From a virus, in the IMG/VR virus record IMGVR_UViG_3300045988_125650, positions 1 to 37,451 of that record: 37,451 bases of DNA; one strand, written 5' to 3'. Both the position numbers and the translations under genes were made by a program. Shown piece by piece: positions 11,344-37,451 of the stretch; position 1 is the stretch's first letter; each line of letters starts with the position of its first letter. The notes under the pieces were generated by a model, which worked only from the letters and a program-made list of their open reading frames with translations, did not search any database and was not told where the DNA came from.

Positions 11344-11361
11344 TCATTTTAAACGCAACCG

Positions 11362-12048: not shown

Positions 12049-12084
12049 ATGACCCCTTATCTGTTTCAGAAAGGGGTTTCTTTT
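12049..12084 (+). promoter_or_regulatory. 5' stem-loop (CCCCTT...AAGGGG + TTTCTTTT) that sequesters the RBS of the replication gene
   Basis: 7-bp GC-rich inverted repeat ending 8 nt before the ATG at 12085. The GGGG of the likely Shine-Dalgarno lies inside the stem. Followed by a U-run. Confidence 0.35.
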
Positions 12085-13179: not shown

Positions 13180-13207
13180 AACAATCTCTGACTACTGTAA
13201 ATCAATT

Positions 13208-13326
13208 TTAAAGCCATTTACAAGCCCTACAAGCGACTTTAACACACGAAATGAATACTTTACCATTTTTAACGCTAAAAGCCCGTAGAACGCAAGGAAA
13301 TAGGCTTAAAACGCAAAATAACGCAA
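13208..13326 (+). repeat. Dispersed composite repeat, copy 4 (intergenic, after the replication gene)
   Basis: CATTTACAAGCCCTACAAGCGACTTTAA ... TTTACCATTTTTAACGCTAAAAGCCCGTAGAACGCAAGGAAATAGGCTTAAAACGCAA. Confidence 0.65.
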
Positions 13327-14188: not shown

Positions 14189-14269
14189 ACCATTTTGCCC
14201 ACATAGGCAAATAGGTTTTCCACAGAATTGTGGATAACTCAAAAAGTCTAAAAATGTCTAAAAAATCTA

Positions 14270-14298
14270 TTGACATTTATTAAGTAAATTGCTATAAT
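14270..14298 (+). promoter_or_regulatory. Early promoter copy 2: TTGACA, 17 bp, TGCTATAAT, plus conserved leader
   Basis: Near-identical to the promoters at 10930, 16479 and 21587. Preceded by GTCTAAAAA A-tract repeats. Confidence 0.65.
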
Positions 14299-14339
14299 TA
14301 AACTATAATCAATTAAACACATAAGGAAAGGAAACGATT

Positions 14340-15189: not shown

Positions 15190-15477
15190 ATGGCACTGGT
15201 TAGCAAAAGAGAAGCATATCGAAGAATTAGAGCAGTTTTAGCGAAACCGAAGAAATTACGCTCGGTGGATGTAATCTGTGATTTGGAACAATTATTCGCA
15301 TTGCTCGAGACAAAGGACATTACAAATGGAATTCGCAGAATTACGAAGACCGTGAATATTGATAGCGTTCCAGATAGACAACTCTTATGTTTGCTCGCAG
15401 AATATTGTATCGAGAAAAAACTCGACAATGAGCAAGCTATTATGGAATACGCAGAATTTATTAAATTGAGAAAATAA
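15190..15477 (+). CDS. Hypothetical protein (start uncertain; the ORF track begins at TTG 15154)
   Basis: ATG at 15190 is preceded by AAGGAGG about 12 nt upstream. Confidence 0.4.
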   Translation: MALVSKREAYRRIRAVLAKPKKLRSVDVICDLEQLFALLETKDITNGIRRITKTVNIDSVPDRQLLCLLAEYCIEKKLDNEQAIMEYAEFIKLRK

Positions 15478-15488
15478 GGAGAATAACA

Positions 15489-16019
15489 ATGGTAGTAAAA
15501 ACTGAAACAACTAAAAAAACCGTCTTAAAGAAGAAAGTAAAAGGTTATAATTACAAATACACAGACCTTGCTGGAATTCACGAGTATCTCGAAGAAAAAG
15601 GTTATACATATTGGCAAGAAGTGGAAGAACTCAACGGTGAAGAAAGAATTATCACTCATATTCTAAATAAAGATGACAAAGAAATTCGTAGAGCCGTAGG
15701 CTGTAAGATTATTTCGACTGCTCTTCAAGGAAAGCAAAATGCAACGCAAGAATACGGTTCAGGTATCACTTACGCTCGTAGATATTCACTCTTAATGGCA
15801 TTGGGGCTTGCAACTGAAGATGATGATGCAGAAATTATGACCAAAGGAACTACAACGAAATCATCACCACGCATTGATTTTTCAGAAGTTCGCCAACAAA
15901 TTAAAAACGCCCAAAGTATAGAAGAATTGATGAAGATTTATAGCACAATCCCAGAAAGTCTAACTCAATATTTCACAACGGATTTTACTAACGCAAAGAA
16001 TAGAATTAAAGGAGAATAA
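15489..16019 (+). CDS. ERF-family single-strand annealing protein
   Basis: The stretch GYNYKYTDLAGIHEYL ... GSGITYARRYSLLMALGLATEDDDAE matches the conserved core of the phage P22 Erf family (KYKY...SYARKY...GLFGIDD), recalled from memory. Canonical RBS AAGGAGAATAACAATG. Confidence 0.6.
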   Translation: MVVKTETTKKTVLKKKVKGYNYKYTDLAGIHEYLEEKGYTYWQEVEELNGEERIITHILNKDDKEIRRAVGCKIISTALQGKQNATQEYGSGITYARRYSLLMALGLATEDDDAEIMTKGTTTKSSPRIDFSEVRQQIKNAQSIEELMKIYSTIPESLTQYFTTDFTNAKNRIKGE

Positions 16020-16021
16020 CA

Positions 16022-16441
16022 ATGGGAGTAATAACTTTAAACTCGGAAGAAATCATTAAACTTGGAACATCAGCATTAAACGCTATTCACGATGAACAAG
16101 CTGAAAGTGATTTAGCTAAACTCATTGAAATCAAAGATAGCATTGATAACTTTCTTGATACCGTAAAAAAGCAAATCCTTAAAGAAGTTATGGAGAAAAA
16201 TCCAAATGTTACGGCGTATCAAGGAAAACTCTTAAAAATGGAATTCAGAAAATACGGTTCAAAATACGCTATTAAAAAGGGACTTGATACTCTCGCAGTA
16301 GATAACGGTTTTGCAAAAGCTAAAACGACAATATCTTTAGACACAAAAGCTATAGATGATTATGTAGAAAACTCTGGTGTTTTGCCAGAATATATCGAAG
16401 AAAAAAATCGCCCTACAACCTTAACAATCAAGAAGATTTAA
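16022..16441 (+). CDS. Hypothetical protein (139 aa)
   Basis: RBS AAAGGAGAATAACAATG. Coupled to the ERF gene. Confidence 0.5.
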   Translation: MGVITLNSEEIIKLGTSALNAIHDEQAESDLAKLIEIKDSIDNFLDTVKKQILKEVMEKNPNVTAYQGKLLKMEFRKYGSKYAIKKGLDTLAVDNGFAKAKTTISLDTKAIDDYVENSGVLPEYIEEKNRPTTLTIKKI

Positions 16442-16478
16442 AAAATCTAAAAAATGTCTATAAAATGATAAAAATCTA

Positions 16479-16507
16479 TTGACTTTTCTTGTGTAAAATA
16501 TTATAAT
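16479..16507 (+). promoter_or_regulatory. Early promoter copy 3: TTGACT, 17 bp, TATAAT, plus conserved leader
   Basis: Near-identical cassette. Upstream ATCTAAAAAATGTCTATAAAA A-tract repeats. Confidence 0.6.
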
Positions 16508-16548
16508 GTAAATATAATCAATTAAACATACAAGGAAAGGAAAATAGT

Positions 16549-16884: not shown

Positions 16885-17158
16885 ATCGCAGGAACTCACC
16901 GACTATGTTTTCAGCCTTGTCTATCAAGGCTGGACACTAGGTTGGAATATAGCGAAAATAAATAGATTTCTCGAGAAACCTCGTGGAGAAAAAGAAATTC
17001 TTATTTTCGAAGAATGGGAAGATTATCTCTTCTGTCAATCTGATGAAATTAAAGGTTTTCTGGACATAATCCAAGGTGGCATAGATTTTGATGAAATCTT
17101 AACTCGCATTGAAGATGAGGCAATTAGAGAAAAAGAAGAATTGGAACTTGAAATATAA
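16865..17158 (+). CDS. Hypothetical protein (start uncertain; ATG at 16865 inside the track ORF 16790-17158)
   Basis: The longer track ORF overlaps the upstream gene by 95 nt. The internal ATG at 16865 gives a 20-nt overlap. Confidence 0.35.
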   Translation: MRVVGNKSQELTDYVFSLVYQGWTLGWNIAKINRFLEKPRGEKEILIFEEWEDYLFCQSDEIKGFLDIIQGGIDFDEILTRIEDEAIREKEELELEI

Positions 17159-17169
17159 GGAGAATAACA

Positions 17170-17547
17170 ATGGGACAAACTAAAGCAGGAGCAATTAAAG
17201 CACGACAAAAAATTATTGAACTTTACGGCGAAGACTTTTACGCTAAAGTCGGCAGAAAAGGTGGTAAAAATGGGACTACTGGAGGGTTCGCAAAAGACCG
17301 TGAATTAGCCAGTAAAGCTGGAAGAATTGGTGGATTAAAATCAAGACGCACTGATGTAGCAAGTAAATTCGAAATGAACGGTGAAATTCTAACAGCGAAA
17401 GAATGGCAGAAGAAATTAAATGTCAACCTTGCAACCGTTTATTCTTACGCAAAAAAAGGTAAACTGAAAAAAGTCGAAGAAGGACGCAAGAAAATCAACG
17501 TAGTCGCAAGTGAAACAATCCACGCTATCAAGTTAAGGAGTGCTTAA
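17170..17547 (+). CDS. KGG-repeat (stress-induced/Con-10-like) protein with a C-terminal HTH-like segment
   Basis: Repeated GRKGG / KAGRIGG motifs typical of the KGG stress-protein repeat. C-terminus LTAKEWQKKLNVNLATVYSYAKKG is HTH-like. RBS AAGGAGAATAACAATG. Confidence 0.45.
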   Translation: MGQTKAGAIKARQKIIELYGEDFYAKVGRKGGKNGTTGGFAKDRELASKAGRIGGLKSRRTDVASKFEMNGEILTAKEWQKKLNVNLATVYSYAKKGKLKKVEEGRKKINVVASETIHAIKLRSA

Positions 17548-17768
17548 TGGGAAAATCTAAAAGACTGTATCAAATTCCAGTAGGAAGAGAAATCGAGGAC
17601 AATCAAAATACACGTTGGAAAATAGTTAAACATATATCGCCCTTTACCAAACTGAAAAACGGTGAAATGGTCGCATATATTGACATTATGGAGGAACTCT
17701 TACTTACTGACGACAATCTTTATAGAATAGAAGCAGATTTATCAAAATTTCAAACCAGTATTAAATAA
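17547..17768 (+). CDS. Hypothetical protein (73 aa)
   Basis: Translationally coupled (TAATGG). Confidence 0.4.
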   Translation: MGKSKRLYQIPVGREIEDNQNTRWKIVKHISPFTKLKNGEMVAYIDIMEELLLTDDNLYRIEADLSKFQTSIK

Positions 17769-17779
17769 GGAGAATAACA

Positions 17780-18445
17780 ATGTTTAAAAACAATTCAAAT
17801 AGTATGAAAAAAGAAGTTAAAGAAGTTTATAGGATTTCAGATGTTTCTAACAGTGAAAGCGAAGCTAAAAAGGAAATCATTCAAAAACTCGACAAGGAAG
17901 CACAAAAAATCTCAGAAAAAATTCACGATGATATGATTGAATTCCACGAAAAAATGATTAAAAAATACGGAGAAAACTATCGTGGAACAAATATTATGTG
18001 CTCAGTCGTAATCAACAGTGGCAAAGGAATTAGAACCCTTGCGAACGCTAACTTTGCCGACTATACTCTAAAATCTCAAAAGGAAGTTAAAAAAGTTATT
18101 GAATCGCTCGCATTCATTGCTGAAAAGGTGGGCGAAAAAATCCAAGCTCAAGCTGATATAGACTTTAAACAATCTGAAGAAGACATCAATATGGAGAAAG
18201 CTCATAAAATCGCAGATGGCGTGATTGGTATCGTAAACTTTTCAAAGGAATTTTTCGGAGAAAAAGTCTATATTAAAATGAGTAAAAAAGGTTATCTTGA
18301 CCCTTACGGAATGATAGATTTTAACAATAAAAAAGCTTTTGATTTCGTGAAGAAACTTCTTGATAAGAAAAGTGCTTATGAACGAGAGGAATTCTGGGAC
18401 ACTCTTAAGAGTAAATTCAAGGAAGTTATGAGTATAGATGTTTAA
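17780..18445 (+). CDS. Hypothetical protein (221 aa)
   Basis: RBS AAGGAGAATAACAATG. Confidence 0.5.
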   Translation: MFKNNSNSMKKEVKEVYRISDVSNSESEAKKEIIQKLDKEAQKISEKIHDDMIEFHEKMIKKYGENYRGTNIMCSVVINSGKGIRTLANANFADYTLKSQKEVKKVIESLAFIAEKVGEKIQAQADIDFKQSEEDINMEKAHKIADGVIGIVNFSKEFFGEKVYIKMSKKGYLDPYGMIDFNNKKAFDFVKKLLDKKSAYEREEFWDTLKSKFKEVMSIDV

Positions 18446-21535: not shown

Positions 21536-21586
21536 CTTTATAAATGAAAAAAGTCTAAAAAAGTATAAAAAAGTCTAAAAAAACTA

Positions 21587-21615
21587 TTGACTTTTATCGT
21601 GTAAAAATATATAAT
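21587..21615 (+). promoter_or_regulatory. Early promoter copy 4: TTGACT, 17 bp, TATAAT, plus conserved leader
   Basis: Near-identical cassette. Preceded by three AGTCTAAAAAA/AGTATAAAAAA repeats. Confidence 0.6.
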
Positions 21616-21657
21616 AGTAATATAAATAAATAATACATACGAAGGAAAGGAAATAGT

Positions 21658-22248: not shown

Positions 22249-23229
22249 ATGACTAAACAACAGAAATCACAAGGTTTTGGAATTTTATTAGATGAAATCA
22301 ATAACGCTATCGAAGGACAAATCACAGAAAAACTATTAGAAGCAAAAAAGGAAATTCAAGCTGAATTAGATAAGCTACACTCACAGCAACCAACCGTAGT
22401 TATTCAAGGTCGCAAAAAAACTCAAATCAAGGGACTAAAGCATAAACAGCTGGACACCTTACTAAAAGTAGTTGGAATTGACCAGAACGCTTTACTCGTA
22501 GGTTCAGCGGGTAGTGGAAAAACTAAAGCTGGACAACAAGTAGCAGAAGCCCTAAAATTGGACTTTTACGCTATCAGTGTCGGCTCACAAACTTCAAAGT
22601 CGGACATTCTGGGCTATATGGATGCAAAGGGAGAATATGTTCAAACTGAATTTCGCAAGGCATATGAAAAAGGTGGGGTCTTCCTTATGGATGAAATTGA
22701 TGCAGGAAACTCAAATGTTTTGATTGTCTTAAACTCAGCCTTAGCGAACGGACTTTGTGCATTCCCAGACAAAATGGTAGAAAAACACAAGGACTTTCGT
22801 TTTATTGGAACCGCTAACACCTACGGAAATGGAGCAAATCGCCAGTATGTTGGTCGCAATCAGCTGGACAGTGCAACTCTCGACCGCTTTACTATCATTG
22901 ACTGGGAGATTGATGAAACTCTTGAGAAAAATCTCATTAGCTCATATGAAAGTGGAGAATATTGGCACGCAGTCATTAAGAAAATTCGAGACTATATTAA
23001 AAGGAATGAAATCAGAGCTATTGTTTCGCCACGTGCTACAATGAAAGGTGTTCAACTCTTAGGGCTTGGCTTTACTTTAGAAGAAACCTTGGAAATGTGT
23101 GTTTTTGGACAAGTTCCAGAAGATAAAATTCACAATGTTCGAAAAGAAGCTCAATCCGTGCCTAAACCTAAACACAAGGAAAAGCAAGAAGAAAAGAAAG
23201 AAGTTGAAGATTACCAGCTACCTTTCTAA
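22249..23229 (+). CDS. MoxR-like AAA+ ATPase (AAA_5/CbbQ-type)
   Basis: Walker A LLVGSAGSGKT, Walker B VFLMDEID, sensor TANTYGN and arginine finger. Single AAA+ module with an N-terminal extension. Confidence 0.75.
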   Translation: MTKQQKSQGFGILLDEINNAIEGQITEKLLEAKKEIQAELDKLHSQQPTVVIQGRKKTQIKGLKHKQLDTLLKVVGIDQNALLVGSAGSGKTKAGQQVAEALKLDFYAISVGSQTSKSDILGYMDAKGEYVQTEFRKAYEKGGVFLMDEIDAGNSNVLIVLNSALANGLCAFPDKMVEKHKDFRFIGTANTYGNGANRQYVGRNQLDSATLDRFTIIDWEIDETLEKNLISSYESGEYWHAVIKKIRDYIKRNEIRAIVSPRATMKGVQLLGLGFTLEETLEMCVFGQVPEDKIHNVRKEAQSVPKPKHKEKQEEKKEVEDYQLPF

Positions 23230-23244
23230 ATAAGGAGAAAAACA

Positions 23245-24195
23245 ATGATAGACTTATTAGCAAAAGCTACAGATGACACTCATCATCACCCAGAATATAA
23301 GTTATCGTGGGGCTATCTCGAAGAAGATAAAGAAGATGAAAACTTCGATAGAGAGGATACTGGCTTTTACACGAGAGAAGAAGAAATATTCGTTAAGGCC
23401 AAAGGATTAAATAATTTTATTCGTGCAATCCTTGATGATGACAAAAATCATTTCATAGGACAGAAAAATGAGCATAACTCAAGCCATAAACAAAAAGAAG
23501 CAGGCTTTAATTATTTCGACGATTGGGACAAATGCATTGATTGCTTTCTAAACAATCCCCTCTCATTGAAAGAATTCACGGAGAACGAAGAACAACTCAC
23601 AGAACACAATTCTTCTGGAAATAGTGTTGAATATGACAAAACTGGGGACTTCCTTGATGTATCAAAATTCTTAGGCGGAGATATGGATTGTTTCGGTAGT
23701 ATGACAGACGGAAATCTTCAAAATAGATATATGAATTTAATTATCACCATTGGAGGAAACGCAGGAATTACTAACGGAGAATTGCGAGCATACGCAGGAA
23801 TAATTCAAGAGATTGTGGACTTTCTGGAGAATAATAAAATTAGGTGTAAAGTGGAAGCATTCACCACGAACCAATGTTCCACACTTCAACTAACAGTCAA
23901 AGATTATGATGAACCTTTATCACTTTCAGACATTTTCGTTATCATGAACCCAGACTTTTTCCGCAGACTTCATTTTAGAGTTGCAGAGAGAAGCCCTACC
24001 ATTAACTGGAGTTATGGAGATGGAACTGTTGCACCATACATAGAAGCCCTTGCTGAAGAAAATACACCGACATTGTATTTTAAGAAAAGAAAATATTTCG
24101 GAGATATGGAAAAACTAAAAGAAGAAACCTACAAAGAAATCCAAAATGCTATTGATAACTGGGACAAAAACCCAACACCACTCATAACTTTATAG
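23245..24195 (+). CDS. Hypothetical protein (316 aa), probable functional partner of the MoxR-like ATPase
   Basis: Coupled to the ATPase gene (RBS AAGGAGAAAAACAATG 13 nt after its stop). No clear VWA MIDAS motif. Confidence 0.45.
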   Translation: MIDLLAKATDDTHHHPEYKLSWGYLEEDKEDENFDREDTGFYTREEEIFVKAKGLNNFIRAILDDDKNHFIGQKNEHNSSHKQKEAGFNYFDDWDKCIDCFLNNPLSLKEFTENEEQLTEHNSSGNSVEYDKTGDFLDVSKFLGGDMDCFGSMTDGNLQNRYMNLIITIGGNAGITNGELRAYAGIIQEIVDFLENNKIRCKVEAFTTNQCSTLQLTVKDYDEPLSLSDIFVIMNPDFFRRLHFRVAERSPTINWSYGDGTVAPYIEALAEENTPTLYFKKRKYFGDMEKLKEETYKEIQNAIDNWDKNPTPLITL

Positions 24196-24264: not shown

Positions 24265-24561
24265 ATGGACAACAAACAGCGGAAAAATCCGGATTTTCCT
24301 ACGAACTGCAAAATATGCGGTGGAATTTTAGACCCCCTACCATATTTTAATGACGTGAATGCTTATGAAGATGAGCAAGGAAGATTTTGCAAAGTATTAG
24401 CACGCTTTCCTAACGGAGAGCCACGAACCTTTGAATACACTTTAGCTTGCAGGAACAATCCTAACGAACACCCACAACTAAAAGTTGTTGAAACACCTTG
24501 CGTGGGTTTCAGAAGTGTCATTCGAGCAGATAAATATGATGTCAATAAATTAAAAATATAG
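24265..24561 (+). CDS. Zinc-finger protein (98 aa; CKICGG ... C..C)
   Basis: Cys pairs at the N-terminus plus internal Cys residues. Confidence 0.45.
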   Translation: MDNKQRKNPDFPTNCKICGGILDPLPYFNDVNAYEDEQGRFCKVLARFPNGEPRTFEYTLACRNNPNEHPQLKVVETPCVGFRSVIRADKYDVNKLKI

Positions 24562-24656
24562 CTATAACGCTGATAATCGCGTTCTAAGCGAAGATAAGTC
24601 AAAAGATATATTCGCTATCATCTTTTAAGTTAAAACGCCGTAGAACGCAAGGAAAC
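24557..24656 (+). repeat. Dispersed composite repeat, copy 5 (intergenic, upstream of the modification-like operon)
   Basis: TATAGCTATAACGCTGATAATCGCGTTCTAAGCGAAGATAAG ... AAAACGCCGTAGAACGCAAGGAAACGAGG. Confidence 0.6.
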
Positions 24657-24667
24657 GAGGAATAACA

Positions 24668-25527: not shown

Positions 25528-26028
25528 ATGGAAAATGAAAAAATTATTCGTGTAGTAAAATCAACTGGAATTGGCAACAATTCACTCGGAGCTTTCGACA
25601 ATGCACTCTTTAATGCAGGTGTTCATAATTACAACCTTATCAGACTTTCGAGCGTTGTTCCAGAAGGATACACAGTTGTAAAATCAGACGGAAAAGCTCT
25701 CACAGACGGAAAATGGGGCGACAAACTCTATGTCGTTATGGCCATTCAACACGCAGATAAACCAGGGGAAGAGGCTCACGCTGGAATTGGCTGGGCGTAT
25801 GATAAAAACAATCCAGAACACGGACTATTCGTGGAACACGAAGGCACAAGCCTTGAATACGTGGAAACAGCTATTCGCACAAGCCTTAAAGACCTTTTTG
25901 AAAGCCGAGGCTTAGAGATGGGAGAAATTGATATGATTACTTCTTCAATCAAATGCGAAGATAAACCAGTAGTAGCATTTTGTGTATCAGCATTCGAGGC
26001 ACAAGGCTGGAATAACTTGCGAGGTTAA
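25528..26028 (+). CDS. Pyruvoyl-dependent arginine decarboxylase (PvlArgDC/PdaD/AaxB)-like protein
   Basis: 166 aa, the typical size. The stretch LGAFDNALFNAGVHNYNLIRLSSVVP closely matches the PvlArgDC core (archaeal PdaD [23 protein letters not shown], recalled from memory), including the Ser-Ser self-cleavage site. Confidence 0.65.
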   Translation: MENEKIIRVVKSTGIGNNSLGAFDNALFNAGVHNYNLIRLSSVVPEGYTVVKSDGKALTDGKWGDKLYVVMAIQHADKPGEEAHAGIGWAYDKNNPEHGLFVEHEGTSLEYVETAIRTSLKDLFESRGLEMGEIDMITSSIKCEDKPVVAFCVSAFEAQGWNNLRG

Positions 26029-26029
26029 A

Positions 26030-27163
26030 ATGGCTACTCGACTATACAAAACAACCGACGTATTCGAAGAAGGGCTCAACCGAATGCGGTGGCTCTTCGA
26101 AGAGTTCAATAACAATGTATGCGTGAATTTTTCTGGTGGAAAAGATAGCACCGTTGTTCTTAATTTAGCACTTATGGTGGCAAGAGAAAGAAACGCCCTA
26201 CCTTTAAAGGTATTCTTCCTTGACCAAGAAGCAGAATGGCAAGCTACAATCGACGAAATCAAAGCGGTTATGTATGACCCAGAAGTCGAGCCGTATTGGT
26301 TTCAAGTTCCTTTCAAAATGGAAAATTCAGCCTCAACCGAAGGAAAATGGCAGAAAATCTGGGGCAAAGGTGAAGAGTGGATTAGACCACAAGACCCTAT
26401 CTCAATTAAAGACATTGGTTATGATACTTCCGACTTAGAGTTTTACGACTTATTCTCACATTTTCTGGACTGGAAATTCCCAAAAACTAAAGCGTGTTTA
26501 GTGGGAGGGGTTCGAGCTGAAGAAAACCCTAACCGTGCGTTGGGGCTAACTCGTATGGCTACCTACAAATGGATTACGTGGGGCAAAAAAACTGAAATGG
26601 CTAAAAACGCTAAAATTCACTTCACCTTTTACCCAATTTATGACTGGACTTACGCTGATGTATGGAAAGCTATCGCAGACAATAACTGGCGATATTGCAA
26701 GATTTACGACAAACAGTATCAATATGGCTATAACATTCAAAATATGCGAGTATCATCATTGCACCATTCGACGAGCCTATCTTCACTTTACTCATTACAA
26801 GAACTAGAACCAGAAACTTACGAGGCAATCGTTCATCGAATGAGTGGAGTAGATACCGTAGGAAAACTCGGAAAAGAAGACCACTATGTCAAAGACTTAC
26901 CTTTTATGTTCACAGACTGGGTGGAATACCGAGATTATCTTTTGGAAAACTTAATTAAAAGGGAAGATGAAAAAGAAATCTTCAGACACGCTTTTGAAAA
27001 ATTTGATAACAAATATTCGAAGTATATTGATATGGAGAGAATTGCTCAACTCGAGATAACTTGCATTATATCGAATGACTTATATATGGTTAAATTAAAA
27101 AACGCTGAGAGACACCACGACTTCATCGCAGCGGATAAAAGGAGAATTGCAGAAAATGGTTAA
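26030..27163 (+). CDS. IbrA/DndC-like PP-loop ATP pyrophosphatase (PAPS-reductase fold with DUF3440-like C-terminal domain)
   Basis: PP-loop motif VNFSGGKDSTVVL. A ~200-aa extension after the PAPS-reductase core. ATG at 26030 with RBS GAGGT (the track start at 25982 overlaps the upstream gene). Confidence 0.75.
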   Translation: MATRLYKTTDVFEEGLNRMRWLFEEFNNNVCVNFSGGKDSTVVLNLALMVARERNALPLKVFFLDQEAEWQATIDEIKAVMYDPEVEPYWFQVPFKMENSASTEGKWQKIWGKGEEWIRPQDPISIKDIGYDTSDLEFYDLFSHFLDWKFPKTKACLVGGVRAEENPNRALGLTRMATYKWITWGKKTEMAKNAKIHFTFYPIYDWTYADVWKAIADNNWRYCKIYDKQYQYGYNIQNMRVSSLHHSTSLSSLYSLQELEPETYEAIVHRMSGVDTVGKLGKEDHYVKDLPFMFTDWVEYRDYLLENLIKREDEKEIFRHAFEKFDNKYSKYIDMERIAQLEITCIISNDLYMVKLKNAERHHDFIAADKRRIAENG

Positions 27164-27815
27164 AATAGAAGACTTCACACAAAAACACACAATCGAAGAA
27201 GACCGCCCTATATACAAGGTGGACAATTCCACGCTACCGGAACAAGTGAGGCACAACGCTTGTGCAAATATCTGTTTCATTCCTATTGAAAAGGTTCAAG
27301 CTAACGACTACAACCCTAACGCAGTGGCAACTCACGAAATGAAACTTCTTTATGTTTCTGTTAAAGCGGACACCTACACAATGCCCGTAGTTACCATTTA
27401 CGACCCAGAAATTAAGAAGTATGTCATCATTGATGGTTTCCACCGATACTCAACAATGCGAAGAAACAAAGACATTTATGAAATGAATGACGGTTATCTT
27501 CCTTGCGTAGTCCTAGACAAAAACATTAATGAGCGAATGGCTTCCACAGTTCGCCACAATCGAGCAAGAGGCAAACACTCAGTAAATGGAATGTCTACAA
27601 TCGTTTTCGAGATGTTAAAAAATGGCAAAACAGATGAACAAATCTGTAATGAACTTGGACTTGAAGTCGAAGAACTTGTTCGCCTAAAACATATCACTGG
27701 CTACTCTAAACTCTACCAGAATGTCCAATACTCTAAAGCGTGGGAAACGGACAATCAAATTGAAATAAAACGCAAATACAAGCAGGAGCACCCAGATGAG
27801 CAAATCACAATCTAA
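27147..27815 (+). CDS. ParB/Srx-fold (ParB N-terminal domain) protein, IbrB/DndB-like
   Basis: DGxHR-type motif IIDGFHRY, HNRARG. Overlaps the IbrA-like stop. Confidence 0.7.
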   Translation: MQKMVKIEDFTQKHTIEEDRPIYKVDNSTLPEQVRHNACANICFIPIEKVQANDYNPNAVATHEMKLLYVSVKADTYTMPVVTIYDPEIKKYVIIDGFHRYSTMRRNKDIYEMNDGYLPCVVLDKNINERMASTVRHNRARGKHSVNGMSTIVFEMLKNGKTDEQICNELGLEVEELVRLKHITGYSKLYQNVQYSKAWETDNQIEIKRKYKQEHPDEQITI

Positions 27816-28428
27816 GGACACGAAGTCAAAAGACACAAAGTTAAAGAAGATTAAACTTTCTAAAATTAAGCCGTATAATCTCAATGCACGAGATAATAAC
27901 AAATACGCAGTTCAAGCCGTAGTAGAAAGTATTAAACGCTACGGCTACACAAACCCAATCATCGTTGATGAAAAGAATGTTATCATTGCTGGACATACAC
28001 GCTACCTTGCACTTAAGGAATTAAATTTTGATGAAGTGGAAGTTATCGTATCAAAGATGAGTGAAGATGAAGCTAAAGAATACCGTATCATCGACAACAA
28101 AACTAACGAGCTATCGCAGTGGGATGAGAAAAATCTTCAGTTTGAATTACGAGAATTTGAACAAAGGGACTACGCTCAAGAACTATTCCCAGAAATCAAG
28201 GACAATATCAAAATTCAAGACACCACGGAGTATGATATTGATGAGAAAGATTTTGAAAGAATTGAGAAAAAACTCGGAGAAGATTTTGAAGAAAAGATGA
28301 ACAAAAAAACTTCATCTGATGACTTTCTGGAAATCAAGTGTCCGCACTGTGGCAGAACATTCTTAATGCCAATTCCAGACCTACTGCACAAATTCAAAAT
28401 TGAAAAATTAAACAGGGAGCAAGAATAA
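27796..28428 (+). CDS. ParB N-terminal-domain protein with C-terminal zinc ribbon (paralog A)
   Basis: Motif IIAGHTRYLA; KEYRIIDNKTNE; C-terminal CPHCG. Overlaps neighbouring genes. Confidence 0.65.
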   Translation: MSKSQSKDTKSKDTKLKKIKLSKIKPYNLNARDNNKYAVQAVVESIKRYGYTNPIIVDEKNVIIAGHTRYLALKELNFDEVEVIVSKMSEDEAKEYRIIDNKTNELSQWDEKNLQFELREFEQRDYAQELFPEIKDNIKIQDTTEYDIDEKDFERIEKKLGEDFEEKMNKKTSSDDFLEIKCPHCGRTFLMPIPDLLHKFKIEKLNREQE

Positions 28429-28976
28429 TGATTTCAAAGAAAACAGTCCATATTGATGAAATTGTTCCATACTGGAGAAACCCACGAGATAACAACGAGA
28501 ACGCTATCATAGCAGTCGCTAAGTCTATTGAAAAGTTTGGTTATCAAGCTCCAATCCTCGTGGATAGTAAAATGACAATTATTGCTGGACACACACGCTA
28601 CAAAGCATTACGCAGATTACGCACTGAATACGTAGAAGTTGTAGTATCAGATATGTCGCAAAAACAAGCCAAGGAATACCGCATTGTAGATAACCGAACA
28701 AACGAGTATTCTAACTGGATTATTGATAATGTTCTTGCTGAATATGAGGAAATCAAAGCCCCAGACCTTCTGGATGATTTATTCCCAACTATTCGTGGCA
28801 AAGAAGAAATCGAAGAACAAGAAGAAGAATATATTTCACCACGAGAGCAAGCTAAAACACTCACAATCGAAGACAATGATTATATTGAAATAATCTGCCC
28901 TAACTGTTTTAATGGATTTGAAATGACCTACAAGGAGTTTAAAAAACTCTGTAAAGAGCAGAATAAAAAATTCTAA
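28428..28976 (+). CDS. ParB N-terminal-domain protein with C-terminal zinc ribbon (paralog B; tandem duplicate of 27796-28428)
   Basis: Motif IIAGHTRYKA; KEYRIVDNRTNE; C-terminal CPNC. The start overlaps the upstream stop (TAATGA). Confidence 0.65.
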   Translation: MISKKTVHIDEIVPYWRNPRDNNENAIIAVAKSIEKFGYQAPILVDSKMTIIAGHTRYKALRRLRTEYVEVVVSDMSQKQAKEYRIVDNRTNEYSNWIIDNVLAEYEEIKAPDLLDDLFPTIRGKEEIEEQEEEYISPREQAKTLTIEDNDYIEIICPNCFNGFEMTYKEFKKLCKEQNKKF

Positions 28977-28997: not shown

Positions 28998-29489
28998 ATG
29001 GCAACTAAAATACCACTTTCAAGAATACCGTCTGCACCAAAAGTGAAACCAAAAAAGAACAGTGGGCGTGGCTATCACCCAGACGGCACACCCTACAATC
29101 CAACTGGAAAAGGTGGCTTCGGAGACAATCCACAGAACCGAGCTAACGGACACTGGGACAGTAAAATGACCCCAAGCTTTCAATACAAACGCTTTTTGAA
29201 TATGGACAGTGCCTCACTTATTGAATACGCTAAACAATGGAGAATTATTCAATTAAACAAAACCGAAATCAAAAGCGGAAAATATGATGGAGAATTCCCC
29301 CACACCGTGGTGGAAGAAATGGCACTTCGCCGAGTTCTTGCTGGTATGAAAAGCCTTGCAGATGTGAAAGAAATAACAGACCGTGTTGAGGGGCGAGCTA
29401 CCTACAAAGTCGAACAGAAAATTGAACACGACTTCGCCAACTACTCAAGCGAAGACCTTGAAAAACTTGCGAGAAGCTTAAATGAATAA
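28998..29489 (+). CDS. terS: Terminase small subunit (putative)
   Basis: 163 aa, immediately upstream of and overlapping the large terminase gene. Basic N-terminus. Confidence 0.55.
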   Translation: MATKIPLSRIPSAPKVKPKKNSGRGYHPDGTPYNPTGKGGFGDNPQNRANGHWDSKMTPSFQYKRFLNMDSASLIEYAKQWRIIQLNKTEIKSGKYDGEFPHTVVEEMALRRVLAGMKSLADVKEITDRVEGRATYKVEQKIEHDFANYSSEDLEKLARSLNE

Positions 29490-30891
29490 CGAACAACTTG
29501 CACTCATAAGCATTGAACTGGCGATTAGGAAAAGTCGCCAGTCTTTTCTATGGTTTGTCAAAAATGTTTTTTCGGCATCTTTTGGATTGAATGAATTCGT
29601 GTATGGAAAATACATTGAAGAAGTCATTACGGGAATGGAAGAACACAAATGGACTATGGACGTTTCAGCTCGAGACCACTTCAAAAGCACACGCTTATAC
29701 GCAGAAGTTATGTATGATTTATTCACCACTCAAACCGACCTAGAATGTAGATACTTTTCTTACCAAGCTGGAATGAGTGGCTACCACCTAGGAAAAATCA
29801 AGCGTATGATTGAACAAAATCCATTCTTCCACCCTAAAATGTTCATAGACCAAAGCCCTACATCTTTATCTGTATTACGCTACACAACACCTAACGGAGC
29901 TATTTATGAAGCAAGACCAGAAGGACTACTCTCATTTAAACGTGGTATTCACGCTGAACGCATTTACGTGGACGACCCACTTAAAGACCCAGAGAACAAA
30001 CTCGCACCGACAGTCATTCATAAAATCAATAATGTTATCAAGCTGGAAATCTTCCCAATGGTGAAAAAAGGTGGCTACTATCGTGTTGTTGGAACACCAC
30101 AGACAAATCACGACTTTTTCTTTGATAAAGGACTTCAGAGAAGACTTCACACAAACATTCGCCCAGCTATTAAAAGTGAAAAGAAAAAAGAAGTTATCTT
30201 TCCAGAATGGAAATCATACGAGGAATTAAATGATATTCGCAAAACCATTGGGGAGAAAGCTTTCAATCAGGAATATATGACTAAACCTGCATATAGTGAA
30301 AATTCTTATATTGAGAGAAAAGACCTTAACAAATGCGTAGATATTGAACTTGAAGACTTCGACAATAAGCCTTACTCACGCCCAGAGGGTGTAGATATTG
30401 TGGCAGGATTTGATATTGGTAAAAAAGCACACCCTAGTCATTTTGCTATTTTCGAGAGAACAATCAATCCAGAAACAAATCAATATCAATATAAACAAAT
30501 TCACCAGAAGTTTTTAGACCACGTGGAATACAAAGACCAAGTGGAATATATCAACCTCGCAGTGGAAAAGTATGAAATAGACATTCTACGCTATGACAAC
30601 ACCAGAGCGGAATTTGAAGCATTCGCAGAACAACAACTCTTACCTAACTGTATGATACCTGTTCAATTCAATATACGAACTAACAACCTTATGGCAGTTA
30701 GTCTTAATAAAGTCATTCAAGAAGAACGAGTTAAATTCATAGATGAAGAAAGACAAATAGACCAAATTCTTCAAGTCAATAATGAATTAAAAGCAATCGA
30801 AAGCCCACTGGGACACGGAGATAGTTTTTGGAGCAACGCCTTAGCTTTATACGAAGAAAAACCAAAAGAATATAGTATCAGGTTCTTATAA
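29482..30891 (+). CDS. terL: Terminase large subunit
   Basis: 469 aa. N-terminal ATPase and C-terminal nuclease region (VVGTPQTNHDFFFDKG, DIVAGFDIG). Position before the portal gene. Confidence 0.8.
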   Translation: MNNEQLALISIELAIRKSRQSFLWFVKNVFSASFGLNEFVYGKYIEEVITGMEEHKWTMDVSARDHFKSTRLYAEVMYDLFTTQTDLECRYFSYQAGMSGYHLGKIKRMIEQNPFFHPKMFIDQSPTSLSVLRYTTPNGAIYEARPEGLLSFKRGIHAERIYVDDPLKDPENKLAPTVIHKINNVIKLEIFPMVKKGGYYRVVGTPQTNHDFFFDKGLQRRLHTNIRPAIKSEKKKEVIFPEWKSYEELNDIRKTIGEKAFNQEYMTKPAYSENSYIERKDLNKCVDIELEDFDNKPYSRPEGVDIVAGFDIGKKAHPSHFAIFERTINPETNQYQYKQIHQKFLDHVEYKDQVEYINLAVEKYEIDILRYDNTRAEFEAFAEQQLLPNCMIPVQFNIRTNNLMAVSLNKVIQEERVKFIDEERQIDQILQVNNELKAIESPLGHGDSFWSNALALYEEKPKEYSIRFL

Positions 30892-30907
30892 TTCACTACA
30901 CAACGTG

Positions 30908-31017
30908 TATATAGCCGTATAACGCCGATACAAGCCCCACAAGCGACTTTAAACTCAAAAAGGCATACAAACTCATCTTTTGAATAAAAACGCCATACAA
31001 CGCAAATATAACGGTCA
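30908..31017 (+). repeat. Dispersed composite repeat, copy 6 (intergenic, between terL and the portal gene)
   Basis: TATAGCCGTATAACGCCGATACAAGCCCCACAAGCGACTTTAAAC ... AAAACGCCATACAACGCAAATATAACGGTC. Confidence 0.65.
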
Positions 31018-31025
31018 AACAAGCA

Positions 31026-31054
31026 GTGTAAAACATTCTCAAATGTGATATACT
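31026..31054 (+). promoter_or_regulatory. Candidate promoter: GTGTAA ... TG-A-TATACT, copy 2, upstream of the portal gene
   Basis: Same TGTGATATACTTAAA 15-mer as at 24216-24230. Confidence 0.35.
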
Positions 31055-31106
31055 TAAAGATAATTAAAAACCGAATAACTTTAAAAGAAAAAAGGAAAAG
31101 CAATAA

Positions 31107-33332
31107 ATGAATTTTGGACAAAGGCTTAAGAGTTTTTTCTCAGCACCAACCACAACTCAACCATTGACGAACCTTGATTATTCACCGAACCGAGCCAAGA
31201 AGTTCAAAACTAAAGATGAACAAATCAGAGCTAACATTGGGTGGGTATTCGCTGCATCGCAACTCATCTCAGATGATTGTTCCACGCAAGAGATAGAATT
31301 ATGGAAGAAACTTCCAGATGGAACAGAAGAACAAGTTTTCCAGCACGAGATTTTGGAACTCTTAAATGACCCTACAAGTCTTATGACACCAAGGCAACTT
31401 TGGAGTTTATACTATCAATACCTAAACCTTACGGGTGAAACCTACCTACTCAAACTGGACAAACAAGGCAAACCTATCACTAACAATGCACAACTTCCAG
31501 CGGCACTGTTCCCACTACCAAGTCATATGTGTGAACTCAAGCTCAATAATGATGATTACAATAAATCAGTGATTGTCTTTAATGGACAAGAATTCACTCT
31601 AGACCAAGTTATTAGAGATATTAACCCAGACCCAGAGAATATCTTTAAGGGACTTTCAGTTATTTCAAAAGTATCATTAGCAGTAGATACAGATGAAAGA
31701 ATGAAAAACTGGAATAATAAACTCTTCATCAATGGAGCAAGACCAAGCTTAGCACTCGAAGTGCCAGGGGAATTATCAGAGAAGAATTTCGAAAGATTAA
31801 ATCAACAGATTAAGGAAAGATTTGTAGGGGACGAAAATACCTTTAAACATATCATTTTAGAGAATGGAATGAAGGTCAATCCTTATATGATGAACCAGCA
31901 AGACTTGGACTTTCTATCATCAAGAGAATTTACACGTGATGAAATCCTTTCATTCTTTAAACTCTCAAAAGCGAATCTTGGAATTGTAGATGATGTCAAT
32001 CGAGCTAACAATGAAGCTCAAGAATACCGCTATGCAAAACAAGTGATTAAACCACGCATTGAACAATTCGCAGACATTATCAACCGAAGACTTATCAAAC
32101 CAGTATATGGAACAGAATTCTTTATTCGTTTTAAAAATCCTATACCAGAAGATAAAGATAGAATTCTTCAAGAAGCACAAGCAGGTATTAACAAATGGCT
32201 TACAATCGATGAAGTCCGTGAAGTATATGGCTATGAAGCACTTCCAGATGGAGCAGGTCAAGAGATTTACACACAATTAAACCAAATTAAACTCTCAGAC
32301 CTAAATGATATATCTCAAAACACCCCACAGGACGTCGATACAAGCCCTCAGAGCGAAGATAAACCAGAAGATGATAAAGATACCCCAAATGAAGATAACT
32401 CGCAAGGAAACACGCCAAACGCTGAGCAAAGCGAAGAAGAAGATAAAGAAGACAAGAACCTTGAAGCTGAAATTCAAGATGAAACTCTCATCAAAAAGCG
32501 AGCTATTGGAAATAATAAAATTCAACGTAGGACAATCCAAGCCAAACGTTATGAAAAGAAACTTCTTAAAACCAGCAGAAAGATGTTCGATAGACAAAAA
32601 TCACAAGTCTTAAACTGGCTAGAACATAATAAACCTACAAATGAAAAACAATATCAAAAAGCCTTAATCCAGAAAATCAAAACCAAGGACTGGGCAGATG
32701 AAATGATAGACTGGGACAAAGAACAAGAATTATTCCAGCAAGATATAGCAACTATTCAAAGAACCATTATTGAAACAGTGGGACTTGAAGAATATAACGC
32801 TTTAATCTCAAATGATGATAAAAACTTCAATTCTAACGCACCGTCAATAGATAAATTCATTTTAGACACTTCTGAATTAGCAAGCCTAACAATCACAGAT
32901 GAAACAAAGGAACAAATCAAAGCAACACTATCAGAAGCAATCCATAATGGAGAAACTCTAAATGAAATGACAGCAAGGGTCGAAGAAACCTTTGGAACAA
33001 TGGCCACTAAAAGAGCTCAAATGATAGCTCAAACCGAAGTAGCCACAGCCCTTAATCAAGCAGACATAGAAGCGTGGACACAAACCGAACTTGTAGAAGC
33101 AAAGGAGTGGTTCACTGGCGAAGATGAAAAAACTTGCGGTTATTGTCAATCAATGGATGGAAAAATAATCTCTCTTGAAGGTAAGTTCTTTCATAAAGGA
33201 GATAAAATAGAGTTCGAAGATACACACGAACACTCACATCATATGAACCTTGACTATAAGGACATCACAGCTCCACCTATTCACCCACACTGTAGATGTG
33301 CATTGCTACCGGTATTAAAAACTCTTGAATAA
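31107..33332 (+). CDS. Portal protein fused to a C-terminal MuF-like (SPP1 gp7-type) head-morphogenesis domain
   Basis: 741 aa. The N-terminal ~400 aa are portal-like. The acidic low-complexity linker (aa ~408-450) is encoded by a dispersed-repeat copy. The C-terminus (MIAQTEVATALNQADIEAW ... CGYCQSMDG) is MuF-like. Confidence 0.75.
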   Translation: MNFGQRLKSFFSAPTTTQPLTNLDYSPNRAKKFKTKDEQIRANIGWVFAASQLISDDCSTQEIELWKKLPDGTEEQVFQHEILELLNDPTSLMTPRQLWSLYYQYLNLTGETYLLKLDKQGKPITNNAQLPAALFPLPSHMCELKLNNDDYNKSVIVFNGQEFTLDQVIRDINPDPENIFKGLSVISKVSLAVDTDERMKNWNNKLFINGARPSLALEVPGELSEKNFERLNQQIKERFVGDENTFKHIILENGMKVNPYMMNQQDLDFLSSREFTRDEILSFFKLSKANLGIVDDVNRANNEAQEYRYAKQVIKPRIEQFADIINRRLIKPVYGTEFFIRFKNPIPEDKDRILQEAQAGINKWLTIDEVREVYGYEALPDGAGQEIYTQLNQIKLSDLNDISQNTPQDVDTSPQSEDKPEDDKDTPNEDNSQGNTPNAEQSEEEDKEDKNLEAEIQDETLIKKRAIGNNKIQRRTIQAKRYEKKLLKTSRKMFDRQKSQVLNWLEHNKPTNEKQYQKALIQKIKTKDWADEMIDWDKEQELFQQDIATIQRTIIETVGLEEYNALISNDDKNFNSNAPSIDKFILDTSELASLTITDETKEQIKATLSEAIHNGETLNEMTARVEETFGTMATKRAQMIAQTEVATALNQADIEAWTQTELVEAKEWFTGEDEKTCGYCQSMDGKIISLEGKFFHKGDKIEFEDTHEHSHHMNLDYKDITAPPIHPHCRCALLPVLKTLE
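32334..32416 (+). repeat. Dispersed composite repeat, copy 7 (inside the portal gene; translated ..DTSPQSEDKPEDD...NSQGNTP..)
   Basis: GTCGATACAAGCCCTCAGAGCGAAGATAAACC ... ACTCGCAAGGAAACACGCC. Confidence 0.6.
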
Positions 33333-33344
33333 TAAAGGACAAAT

Positions 33345-34211
33345 ATGAATAAAATCACTAAACTTTTCAATAATCAAAGAATGCGAAGTTTCGATGAAAA
33401 AACAAGAACAGTGGAATTCATCATTAGCGACAACACCACAGATAGATATGGTGATATAGTCAATCAAGACTGGGACTTGAAGAATTACTGGAATAACCCA
33501 GTATTACTCTGGGGACACGACCCAAGCCAAATAGACAATGTTTTGGGTAAATGCTTGGAAATCAATACGCAAGAAGAAGATGATAGAATGCTCACTACCG
33601 CTAAATTCCAACTTGCAGAAGCAGGAACATCAAAGGGCGTAGATACGGTCTTCAAGCTTATTCAACAAGGTATTCTCAGAACAGTATCAGTGGGCTTTAT
33701 CTCACACGAAATAGCTCAAGCGGAAAATCAAAAAGGTGAAACTCAAAACATCTTAAAAGGAAATGAACTACTTGAAGTATCTGTTGTTCCTATTCCAGCT
33801 AACCCTAACGCTATAGCACTATCATATGAAGACGGCTCACTTAATGACAAAGACATTAAATTTATGGAAAAGTCTTTAGAAAATGCCTTAACTCTTGTTA
33901 AAAAATCAGTTTATGATAAAATTGAAATAAGTAAAAACTCTAAAACTCAAAGTCAAAAAAAGGAATTCCAAATGACAGATGAAGATGCTAAAAAGATTGT
34001 AGAAGCCCTTATGGCTGAACTCTCACCTATTCTATCTGAACTAAAACCAAAGGAAGATGATAAACCTGAGGAAGACAAAAAGCCGAAAGCTAAATCAAAG
34101 CAAAATGACGATGATGGTGCTTTCGACGAAAACGAAGAGCTAAACGAAGAGCAAGAAAAAGCCTTTCGTGAAGAGCTTGAAAAAGAATATCAAAAACAAC
34201 TCACAAAATAA
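33345..34211 (+). CDS. Prohead protease (HK97/S78 family) with C-terminal scaffold-like acidic coiled coil
   Basis: VLLWGHD motif. KE-rich C-terminal ~100 aa. Confidence 0.7.
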   Translation: MNKITKLFNNQRMRSFDEKTRTVEFIISDNTTDRYGDIVNQDWDLKNYWNNPVLLWGHDPSQIDNVLGKCLEINTQEEDDRMLTTAKFQLAEAGTSKGVDTVFKLIQQGILRTVSVGFISHEIAQAENQKGETQNILKGNELLEVSVVPIPANPNAIALSYEDGSLNDKDIKFMEKSLENALTLVKKSVYDKIEISKNSKTQSQKKEFQMTDEDAKKIVEALMAELSPILSELKPKEDDKPEEDKKPKAKSKQNDDDGAFDENEELNEEQEKAFREELEKEYQKQLTK

Positions 34212-34223: not shown

Positions 34224-35297
34224 ATGAAGAAAACAAAAGCAGAAATTGTTAAAGAGTTCCTAAACGAAAAAGCAAAAGCAACTATTCCTGTAGAAATGAA
34301 CTCAACAGCAAAGCAAGAGAACAAAGAGCTTAACCAAAAATTCTTTAAAGCGTTGGCAACTGGCTCAAAAACTGAATTACGAGCATTGCAAGATGAAATC
34401 GCAAGTGGCTATTCTAAAGACACAGGCGACAAACAGCAAGTAGCAGTTAATGCAGATGGTGGAATGCTTGTTCCTGTAGATATCTCATTAGCTATTATCG
34501 ACAAGTTGAAATACCTTTCACCTATTCGACAATACGCACGAGTTATCAAAGTTGGTGCTAAAAGTAAATTCACAATCGCTGACAAGAAACCTACAGCAAA
34601 CTGGGTAAATGAAGCAGAAGCCCTAACAGCAAGCAAGGCTACATTCTCACAAAAAGATTTTGTATTAAACAAAGTCGGTGGACTTGGTAAATTCACATAC
34701 GAGGCATTGAATGATACAGCTTCAACTCCAGACCTACAGAATTATGTAGTATCACAATTCGCAGAAGCTATCGCAGAAGTTCAAAACAACGCCTTTGTAA
34801 ATGGTGATGGCTCAAAGAAACCTTACGGCTTCCGTTCAAGTGATATTACACCAAAAGAAGTAACCCAAACTGGAGCAAGCCTAAAATATCAAGATTTAGT
34901 AGGATTGAAATATGCCTTAGCTAAACCATACCGAGATACTGGAGTATTTATGGCTAACGGTGCAACTATCGCTAAATTAGTTGGAATGACAGACACAACA
35001 GGTCGCCCACTATTCGTGCCAGCAATGACAGAGAATGAACCAGATACTCTTCTTGGTCGCCCACTTATCGAAGTAAATGAAATCCCAGCTAACCTTGGAA
35101 CAGCCAAGAACGAGAGCGAGATTTGGTATGCCAACCTTAATGACTACATCATTGGGGACAACGAGGCAATCCGAATTGAATTCGGCACAACTGGTGATGA
35201 CTTTGAAACAGATAAAATCTCACTACGAGTTATCGCACGAACAGCAGGACGCCCAGTATCTAACGACGGCTTCGCAGTTCTAAAAAATGTAAAATAA
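34224..35297 (+). CDS. Major capsid protein (HK97 fold)
   Basis: 357 aa. Follows the protease/scaffold gene. Strong terminator downstream. Confidence 0.8.
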   Translation: MKKTKAEIVKEFLNEKAKATIPVEMNSTAKQENKELNQKFFKALATGSKTELRALQDEIASGYSKDTGDKQQVAVNADGGMLVPVDISLAIIDKLKYLSPIRQYARVIKVGAKSKFTIADKKPTANWVNEAEALTASKATFSQKDFVLNKVGGLGKFTYEALNDTASTPDLQNYVVSQFAEAIAEVQNNAFVNGDGSKKPYGFRSSDITPKEVTQTGASLKYQDLVGLKYALAKPYRDTGVFMANGATIAKLVGMTDTTGRPLFVPAMTENEPDTLLGRPLIEVNEIPANLGTAKNESEIWYANLNDYIIGDNEAIRIEFGTTGDDFETDKISLRVIARTAGRPVSNDGFAVLKNVK

Positions 35298-36934: not shown

Positions 36935-37410
36935 TGGACAGAAATAGAACAATCACCAAACAAACTAAAAACTTAATCATAAACGCCCTTAAACAAATCC
37001 CACCATTGGAAGATGGCACTGAATTTAACTTTATCGCAGAAGACGGCGAAGACTTCTTTGAACAATACCCAGCAATTCGTGTTATTCCTAGTGGCATTAC
37101 AAGGGAGATAGACAGTGAACAAGGTCGCATAGACTATAAAATGGACTTCACCATTTCGGTGTATCTGGAATTAAACTCAAACACTCCAACAAAGGAACTC
37201 ATCGACACAATCACTGATATGACAGATAGCATTCTTTATCAACTGGACTATACAAATTGGCTACCAGAAACGCAAGGCAACAGATACGGCTTTGTCTTAG
37301 TGGAAAATTCAACCAGCTCAACTATTGATATAATCCAAACTAAAAGTGGAAGCGTGTTATACAATGATATGACTTATACAGTGTCATATCGAGAGCCACT
37401 CACACTGTAA
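36934..37410 (+). CDS. Tail terminator / tail completion protein (putative)
   Basis: 158 aa. Last gene before the major tail gene on the circular map. Its stop lies inside the terminal duplication. Confidence 0.45.
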   Translation: MDRNRTITKQTKNLIINALKQIPPLEDGTEFNFIAEDGEDFFEQYPAIRVIPSGITREIDSEQGRIDYKMDFTISVYLELNSNTPTKELIDTITDMTDSILYQLDYTNWLPETQGNRYGFVLVENSTSSTIDIIQTKSGSVLYNDMTYTVSYREPLTL

Positions 37411-37451
37411 AAAAACATACTCATATGGTAAAATTGTTATAATAACGAATA
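37397..37451. repeat. Second copy of the 55-bp terminal duplication (identical to 1-55)
   Basis: Exact match to the window start; it overlaps the stop codon of the last head-tail gene (stop at 37408-37410). Confidence 0.9.

Follow-up and report, generated by a model that had tools for sequence, protein, structure and literature searches.

A phage portal protein and its MuF or gp7 partner are usually encoded by adjacent but separate genes (PMC5576092, PMC6316719), as the preliminary description of the locus considered here had rightly stated, and in general a muf gene comes right after the portal gene (PMC5576092). The viral DNA of IMG/VR record IMGVR_UViG_3300045988_125650, positions 1 to 37,451, contains instead a single gene at 31107..33332 on the + strand, in which a portal and a MuF-like head morphogenesis domain are joined through an acidic linker that carries a copy of a dispersed repeat of about 100 nucleotides (nt). 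We refer to this whole 37,451-nt stretch as the window. How did the two proteins come to be one, did the repeat bring them together, and does the gene make one product or two? We consider it probable that the product is a constitutive in-frame fusion in which a disordered acidic tether of ~57 residues joins an HK97-family portal to a complete MuF protein, with the repeat as a passenger.

Two complete modules in one reading frame

The open reading frame (ORF) 31107..33332 encodes an HK97-family portal, a disordered acidic linker, and a complete SPP1-gp7/MuF module. It starts at an ATG and runs in one frame for 741 amino acids (aa) plus the stop codon, as had been read from the sequence. No stop codon occurs in the linker or elsewhere within 31107-33329, and the same ORF is reproduced in independent assemblies. 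Domain searches bore out the proposed division into a portal N-terminus and a MuF/SPP1-gp7-like C-terminus. The Pfam family Phage_portal (PF04860) matches aa 47-373 with an E-value of 8.6e-55 and 186.6 bits against a cutoff of 39.1, and Phage_Mu_F (PF04233) matches aa 603-733 with an E-value of 1.3e-16 and 61.8 bits against a cutoff of 29.6. Both assignments are repeated by the NCBIfam models TIGR01537 portal_HK97 (117.9 bits, cutoff 112.05) and TIGR01641 phageSPP1_gp7 (51.3 bits, cutoff 39.65). The likeness to a portal noted earlier is thus real, but the family is HK97-type (PF04860) rather than SPP1-gp6-type. Alignments to the MuF-type PHROGs phrog_2468 and phrog_595 begin at aa 470-480, which indicates that the whole C-terminal ~270 aa constitute a complete MuF protein. 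A further family, phrog_2662 ("portal protein"), matches over its full length (E 1.1e-97; aa 23-737 against profile positions 43-709 of 717), and fused proteins therefore already form a PHROG family.

The AlphaFold model, built on 57 homologues, consists of two confident modules at aa ~33-390 and ~455-740 with a predicted local distance difference test score (pLDDT) of 80-95, the portal being at 80-93 over aa 40-390. The linker between them (aa 399-455) has a pLDDT of 28-45 and no secondary structure. The best Foldseek matches of the model were the portals of GBSV1, HK97, the gene transfer agent (GTA; RcGTA) and T5, with E-values from 1e-15 to 1e-12; the best 50 matches against the PDB were portals only, and a sequence search of the PDB likewise matched the N-terminal half to HK97-family portals. 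On these grounds we place the portal module (aa ~33-398) at 31203..32300, the linker at 32301..32471, and the MuF module (aa 456-741) at 32472..33329, with its Pfam core at nt 32913-33305, all on the + strand. The 57 linker residues include 20 D/E, 4 K/R and 26 P/S/T/N/Q, in keeping with a disordered acidic segment rich in Pro, Ser, Thr and Asn, and the linker peptide cited in the preliminary description does occur there. In the MuF module, residues C680, H726, C729 and C731 are invariant among the 57 homologues. The linker stands at the same place in all fused homologues, but its length varies and its sequence is unalignable.

The gene neighbourhood agrees with the portal assignment. Upstream lies the gene for the large terminase subunit (TerL; 29482..30891, +; phrog_5909, phrog_38), and downstream follow the genes for a prohead serine protease S78 (33345..34211, +; PF04586, E 2.3e-10) and an HK97-fold major capsid protein (34224..35297, +; PF05065, E 8.1e-58), which is the position expected of an HK97-family portal gene. 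A promoter and terminator scan of 30700-33500 gave no excess over shuffled sequences and no internal promoter or terminator signal in the fusion gene.

An old and widespread fusion

Portal-MuF fusion is old, widespread and already described, and the window gene adds one more example. PF04860 and PF04233 occur together in more than 100 of the best 120 homologue clusters, at 33-97% identity and mostly on phage contigs of 33-38 kb, and a single uninterrupted ORF covers both domains in 71 of the 85 sampled loci that have them. Protein P0001, 97% identical to that of the window, represents 34 sequences and was located on 5 contigs, which makes an assembly error unlikely. Fused proteins are also found in the cultured Geobacillus phage GBK2 (gp3, 685 aa) and Bacillus phage Flasso (751 aa), where they are annotated just as "portal protein"; their identity to the window protein is 24-25% in alignments covering 87-93% of the query. 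Portal-MuF fusions have been reported for Microbacterium phage subclusters EA3, EA5 and EA8 and cluster EB, and the EA phages with the fusion have no maturation protease (PMC7302621). Since the fusion is widespread and the repeat is confined to one species-level lineage, the fusion is the older of the two. The proper annotation for the window gene would be portal-MuF fusion protein, not merely "portal protein".

A proposed place for the tethered MuF domain inside the head

In known portal structures, the C-terminus (crown) faces the capsid interior, and a MuF module attached C-terminally would thus be placed inside the head, one per portal subunit. The gp7 protein of SPP1 is bound strongly by the portal gp6, through which a few copies enter the interior of the procapsid; assembly can do without gp7, but just ~25% of the virions lacking it are infectious (PMC6316719). 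By analogy, we infer an interior location, a 12-copy stoichiometry and an SPP1 gp7-like function for the MuF module of the window. Where the genes are separate, MuF enters the procapsid by binding the portal, and the fusion would hard-wire that targeting. All 12 subunits of the portal would bear a single MuF domain each, on the ~57-residue tether, and like gp7 this domain might function in the packaging or ejection of DNA. Little sequence constraint acts on the tether, and its 5' part might have been overwritten by, or have accepted, an in-frame copy of the lineage-specific repeat.

Several points weigh against a constitutive fusion of this kind. The S78 protease encoded next to the gene could cut the 85-kDa product within its linker, or a shorter form could be made alongside that product; judging from the slippery heptamer that most close relatives have at the boundary, the ancestral gene may have given two products. 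The covalent link implies 12 MuF copies per head, compared with the few copies reported for SPP1 gp7. To our knowledge, the function of MuF proteins comes solely from SPP1 and Mu genetics.

Cleavage of the linker would turn the protein into a polyprotein precursor, from which the S78 prohead protease or autoproteolysis would free MuF inside the head during maturation. HK97-like proteases act inside the prohead, where the linker would be; the S78 gene, a candidate for such cleavage, lies directly downstream; and the linker is predicted to be long, exposed and disordered. However, the linkers, which cannot be aligned, show no conserved cleavage motif, and the fusion-bearing Microbacterium EA phages manage without any maturation protease (PMC7302621). 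We regard a precursor as a possible, if on the whole unlikely, form of the protein, and it would be compatible with a constitutive fusion rather than exclusive of it.

A candidate frameshift cassette in the relatives

The second question, of a shorter form, arises from relatives that seem to lack the fusion. A MuF ORF follows each of the "portal-only" homologues P0115 and P0112; traced back, the MuF-homologous frame, which is -1 to the portal, reaches into the portal linker as far as an A7 or A9 run. In loci L003, L005 and L089, MuF is the next reading frame after the portal. Portal and MuF frames are discordant in 13 of the 85 loci, with MuF in the -1 frame every time. In 12 of these 13, the frames overlap by 22-226 nt, and the overlap always holds a canonical heptamer in the zero frame, a few codons ahead of where the portal stops. 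The junctions carry A_AAA_AAA (L003, L004, L005, L036), an A9 run (L031, L035, L067) or C_CCA_AAA (L025, L026, L027, L037, L041). Among the relatives at large, examples of the cassette are GAGGGTAAGAAGAGCTTCCCAAAACC in L089, GGGGTAAAAAAAAAGACC in L031 and GAGGAGGGTGAGAAGAGCCAAAAAAAGATGA in L010. In Rhodococcus aetherivorans, a prophage at about 3.543-3.555 Mb of the finished chromosome (CP101842.1) contains …GAGGGTAAGAAGAGCTT C_CCA_AAA CCAAGGCGCTGA, again with MuF in the -1 frame. Where loci are GC-rich (52-61% GC), the A-run at the junction is the only run of A≥7 within 5-10 kb. Of 11 -1 loci examined, 7 have a Shine-Dalgarno (SD)-like GAGGGT or GGAGGG ~12-13 nt upstream of the heptamer. The -1 state prevails in one deep clade and recurs within the in-frame clade.

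Independent initiation of MuF in the -1 loci was considered and dropped, as no SD-preceded start codon occurs before the conserved MuF N-terminal helix; in L031, no start codon at all lies within 50 codons before that helix. Sequencing error was likewise rejected in view of the identical protein on contigs from different samples, the conservation across a deep clade, and the finished Rhodococcus chromosome. Two loci were set aside: L019, where the frame is broken within the MuF domain, as a probable error, and L058, where a stop and a gap separate the two domains in the same frame, as a true split. Hairpins downstream of the slippery sites in the relatives were not significant (z -2.7 to +0.45).

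We then mapped all in-frame heptamers on an alignment of 82 conceptual fusion proteins. They peak at the linker/MuF boundary, with 32 loci in one 12-column bin compared with 12 in the best bin elsewhere. In the clade of the window, a heptamer (A_AAA_AAA/G or C_CCA_AAA) falls within alignment columns 725-760 in 29 of 33 loci, 17 of them in-frame fusions, and in 12 of these 17 the -1 frame stops within 1-2 codons. A_AAA_AAA GAT GA, for example, would be read as AAA AAA AGA TGA after a shift, as in dnaX. In the distant clade (25-30% identity), the boundary heptamer is missing from 40 of 49 loci. Two circumstances call for caution: many of the loci are closely related, and Lys-Lys and GAT-GAx coding favours A-runs and -1 TGAs in acidic linkers. 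Transcriptional slippage could also operate at the A9 runs. The most economical reading of the alignments suggests that the boundary heptamers are a conserved recoding site giving both portal and portal-MuF, and from these sequence patterns we judge it likely that frameshifting in the relatives is real. We found no description of frameshifting at the portal/MuF junction in the literature searched. If confirmed, the slippery cassette would be a new conserved recoding event controlling the stoichiometry of an internal head protein, and many MuF genes listed as "separate" or truncated would have to be reannotated. MuF genes in the -1 frame are currently annotated in this manner in L003, L004, L005, L025-L027, L031, L035-L037, L041, L067 and L089.

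Some of these loci (L035, L036, L041, L089; proteins P0093, P0119) contain an extra domain of ~250 aa between the portal core and the slippery site, assigned as a 2H-phosphoesterase by Pfam 2_5_RNA_ligase2 and a weak match to Acb1. This domain could be an anti-CBASS-like enzyme tethered inside the capsid.

Candidate recoding sites in the window

The window belongs, with L001, L002 and L020, to the four loci of its 33-locus clade that have no canonical boundary heptamer. The degenerate counterpart of the slippery site in the relatives is C_AAA_AAG (…LIKKR…) at 32492..32498 (+), just before the MuF N-terminal helix, where the -1 frame would end after 5 codons. The only canonical in-frame heptamer in the window linker is C_CCA_AAT (32384-32390), which together with a -1-frame TGA forms a candidate weak frameshift-and-stop site at 32384..32392 (+), in mid-linker and inside the repeat copy. 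The corresponding site reads CCCAAAC in L001, with a -1 stop after 2 codons, and CCCAAAT followed by TGA in L090 (83% identity). Neither GGAG nor GAGG occurs within 30 nt upstream of either window site.

Normal decoding in the window might thus give portal-MuF, and a -1 slip at C_CCA_AAT into the TGA a portal-only protein of ~428 aa, as in dnaX, so that only some portal subunits would carry MuF. The boundary heptamer in 29 of 33 clade loci, C_CCA_AAA being one of its two types, is in keeping with such an arrangement, as is the immediate -1 stop after the sole heptamer of the window linker. Moreover, the heptamer lies in a stretch of 23 nt that is invariant among the window, L001 and L090, while the 3' part of the linker has diverged. 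However, that conservation rests on three close genomes, and the repeat's own constraint could explain it. AAT or AAC in the A site is a weak frameshifter in bacteria. The window site has no SD-like stimulator upstream, it is not at the position homologous to the cassette of the relatives, and a -1 TGA is expected often in GAT-GAx acidic coding. We therefore find two products in the window improbable.

A broader proposal would make the portal/MuF boundary an old conserved recoding site, the second programmed -1 frameshift in tailed-phage morphogenesis genes besides that of the tail assembly chaperone G/GT, which would set the ratio of plain to MuF-carrying portals. It would have two polarities: with MuF in the -1 frame, the shift would make the fusion, and with MuF in frame, it would make a truncated portal, as in dnaX. 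The window would have swapped the ancestral cassette for an in-frame copy of a mobile repeat and yet make two products via C_CCA_AAT and TGA. Taken as a whole, this proposal is improbable in our view.

A lineage-specific repeat as a probable passenger in the linker

The constitutive fusion, which we prefer, treats the repeat as a passenger. The repeat family is direct, with seven copies of ~100-120 nt, all on the + strand. Five copies are intergenic, at 4536-4654 (in phase with ORF 4576-6558, whose predicted start it overlaps), 11354-11464, 13202-13319, 24556-24659 and, in the gap between TerL and the portal, 30911..31024 (nhmmer E 8.7e-24). They begin 0-35 nt after a stop codon, and in their alignment a 5' box and a 3' box …GAACGCAAGGAAA flank a variable middle. 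A sixth copy at 896-996 is coding and lies in the -1 extension of G/GT (nhmmer E 1e-5, full length). The seventh, at 32322..32420 in the portal-MuF linker, is a diverged in-frame copy with a strong 5' box and a weak 3' box CGCAAGGAAA. It accounts for the 5' ~60% of the linker only (~nt 32322-32420); the acidic 3' part EQSEEEDKEDKN is ordinary acidic low-complexity sequence without repeat origin. The earlier idea of a repeat-encoded low-complexity acidic linker thus stands for the former part and fails for the latter.

Could the resemblance of the linker to the repeat be a chance or low-complexity match, and the long ORF an assembly artefact? The composition of the linker is biased, and an nhmmer profile built from the five intergenic copies alone recovers the window copy only in part, over the 5' box (32332-32374; profile positions 13-55; E 5.7e-4). 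On the other hand, the core GATACAAGCCCTNNGAGCGA has 4 matches in comparison with 0.00 expected, one of them 18/18 at 32337-32356 in the linker, and the linker copies of the relatives match the profile over nearly its full length (positions 13-102 in L001, 97% identical, and 15-103 in L090, 83%). The linker copy and the copy at 917 have a 17-mer in common in the same codon phase, in which the 896-996 and linker copies are translated as …APQSEDN… and …SPQSEDK…, respectively. With the ORF itself recurring in independent assemblies, we consider chance and artefact very improbable.

Additional length coincides with the repeat elsewhere in the window. At precisely the place of the 896-996 copy, the G/GT extension exceeds that of the repeat-free relative L006 by ~26 aa, and the spacer between TerL and the portal measures 215 nt compared with 72 nt in L006 (+143 nt). 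For the portal linker, which is unalignable across relatives, no close relative without the repeat was found. The repeat family was detected only in the window, in L001/L002 (97%) and in L090 (83%). None of the other 84 loci has it, and a scan of IMG/VR for the exact core gave no match.

The preliminary description had further inferred that insertion of the repeat between two separate genes created, or that the repeat now marks, the fusion, and although a copy does lie in the linker, other copies sit just past stop codons and a further one lies in the G/GT linker, this origin is refuted by distribution and has next to no probability left, because the fusion is present in repeat-free relatives at 25-49% identity and the repeat is limited to one species-level lineage. 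The repeat is no engine of gene fusion. Rather, the linker appears from the alignments to be a permissive, unconserved segment that later gained a repeat copy. A lineage-specific repeat of ~100 nt is tolerated in-frame in two disordered linkers of structural proteins, a phage example of repeat DNA turned coding sequence.

As to the nature of the repeat, Rfam and tRNA scans of the whole window found nothing, and it therefore matches none of the known RNA families. Its interpretation as a hairpin-bearing miniature inverted-repeat transposable element (MITE) or a structured RNA was dropped, with RNA fold z-scores of -1.9 to +0.75 over all seven copies. The sole stable hairpin among them is a terminator within the copy at 11377.

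Other features of the genome

Bases 1-55 of the window are identical to 37397-37451, which makes it a circularly assembled complete phage genome with a unit length of 37,396 bp. When 23 kb of the window were compared with GenBank phages by megablast, no match was found, and the phage is thus uncultured. At 597-1363, the tail assembly chaperone G/GT has a -1 frameshift with the slippery sequence T_TTT_TTA at 857-863, and downstream of it follows the tape measure gene (1363-4119, 918 aa). Four copies of a near-consensus sigma-70 promoter (TTGACA, 17 nt, TATAAT) occur at 10891-10976, 14231-14316, 16440-16525 and 21548-21633, each preceded by short repeats of the AAAAAGTCTA type; the phage probably uses them as early or middle promoters. 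Several small genes are preceded by a conserved translation-initiation box AAATAAGGAGAATAACAATG (15470-15520, 16005-16052, 17151-17200, 17761-17810, 23228-23275).

Upstream of the terminase, 25528-28976 encodes a pyruvoyl-dependent arginine decarboxylase (PvlArgDC), a PAPS-reductase/DUF3440 protein and two ParB_N-domain proteins. This block may be a DNA-modification module; L006 has SAM-synthetase-like and methyltransferase genes in place of the decarboxylase. ORF 12049-13179, with a weak HTH_36 match, is a putative DNA-binding or replication gene. It contains, at 12437-12602, about three tandem 24-nt repeats followed by AT-rich short tandem repeats, which resemble an internal origin with iterons.

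Comparison with known systems

The repeat is reminiscent of the Rickettsia palindromic elements (RPE), which Ogata et al. in 2000 reportedly found inserted in-frame in protein genes. Both are dispersed elements of ~100 nt that lie between genes and in-frame at permissive linkers, leaving the ORF intact. Unlike the RPE, the repeat of the window has no significant palindrome or hairpin, is present in just seven copies and keeps one orientation, and its copy in the portal linker may reflect insertion or local divergence.

The candidate cassettes of the relatives resemble the tau/gamma site of Escherichia coli dnaX and that of G/GT in their X_XXY_YYZ heptamers at a domain boundary (A_AAA_AAA/G, C_CCA_AAA), in the SD-like GAGGGT ~12 nt upstream, and in the nearby stop in the alternative frame, a layout that would yield a short and a long product. 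They differ in that the cassettes of the relatives are predicted from sequence and that the downstream hairpins are not significant. The window departs from both, having no cassette and only C_CCA_AAT with TGA and C_AAA_AAG.

Compared with the cultured fusion phages, the window has the same organization of one ORF with an N-terminal portal and a C-terminal MuF, located between the terminase and capsid genes. The sequences differ, at 24-25% identity, and the linker of the window carries a copy of a genome-specific repeat. In contrast to the Microbacterium EA phages, which have none, the window phage has an S78 protease.

A further known counterpart is the gp6 and gp7 pair of SPP1. The MuF module of the window belongs to the gp7 family (TIGR01641, PF04233) and directly follows the portal, and its presumed role is likewise that of a portal-associated internal head protein aiding infection (PMC6316719). 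In SPP1, the two genes are separate and the portal is gp6-type, whereas in the window the two are covalently joined and the portal is HK97-type (PF04860). The fusion would indicate that MuF works physically attached to the inner face of the portal, and it supports the SPP1 model of portal-mediated targeting.

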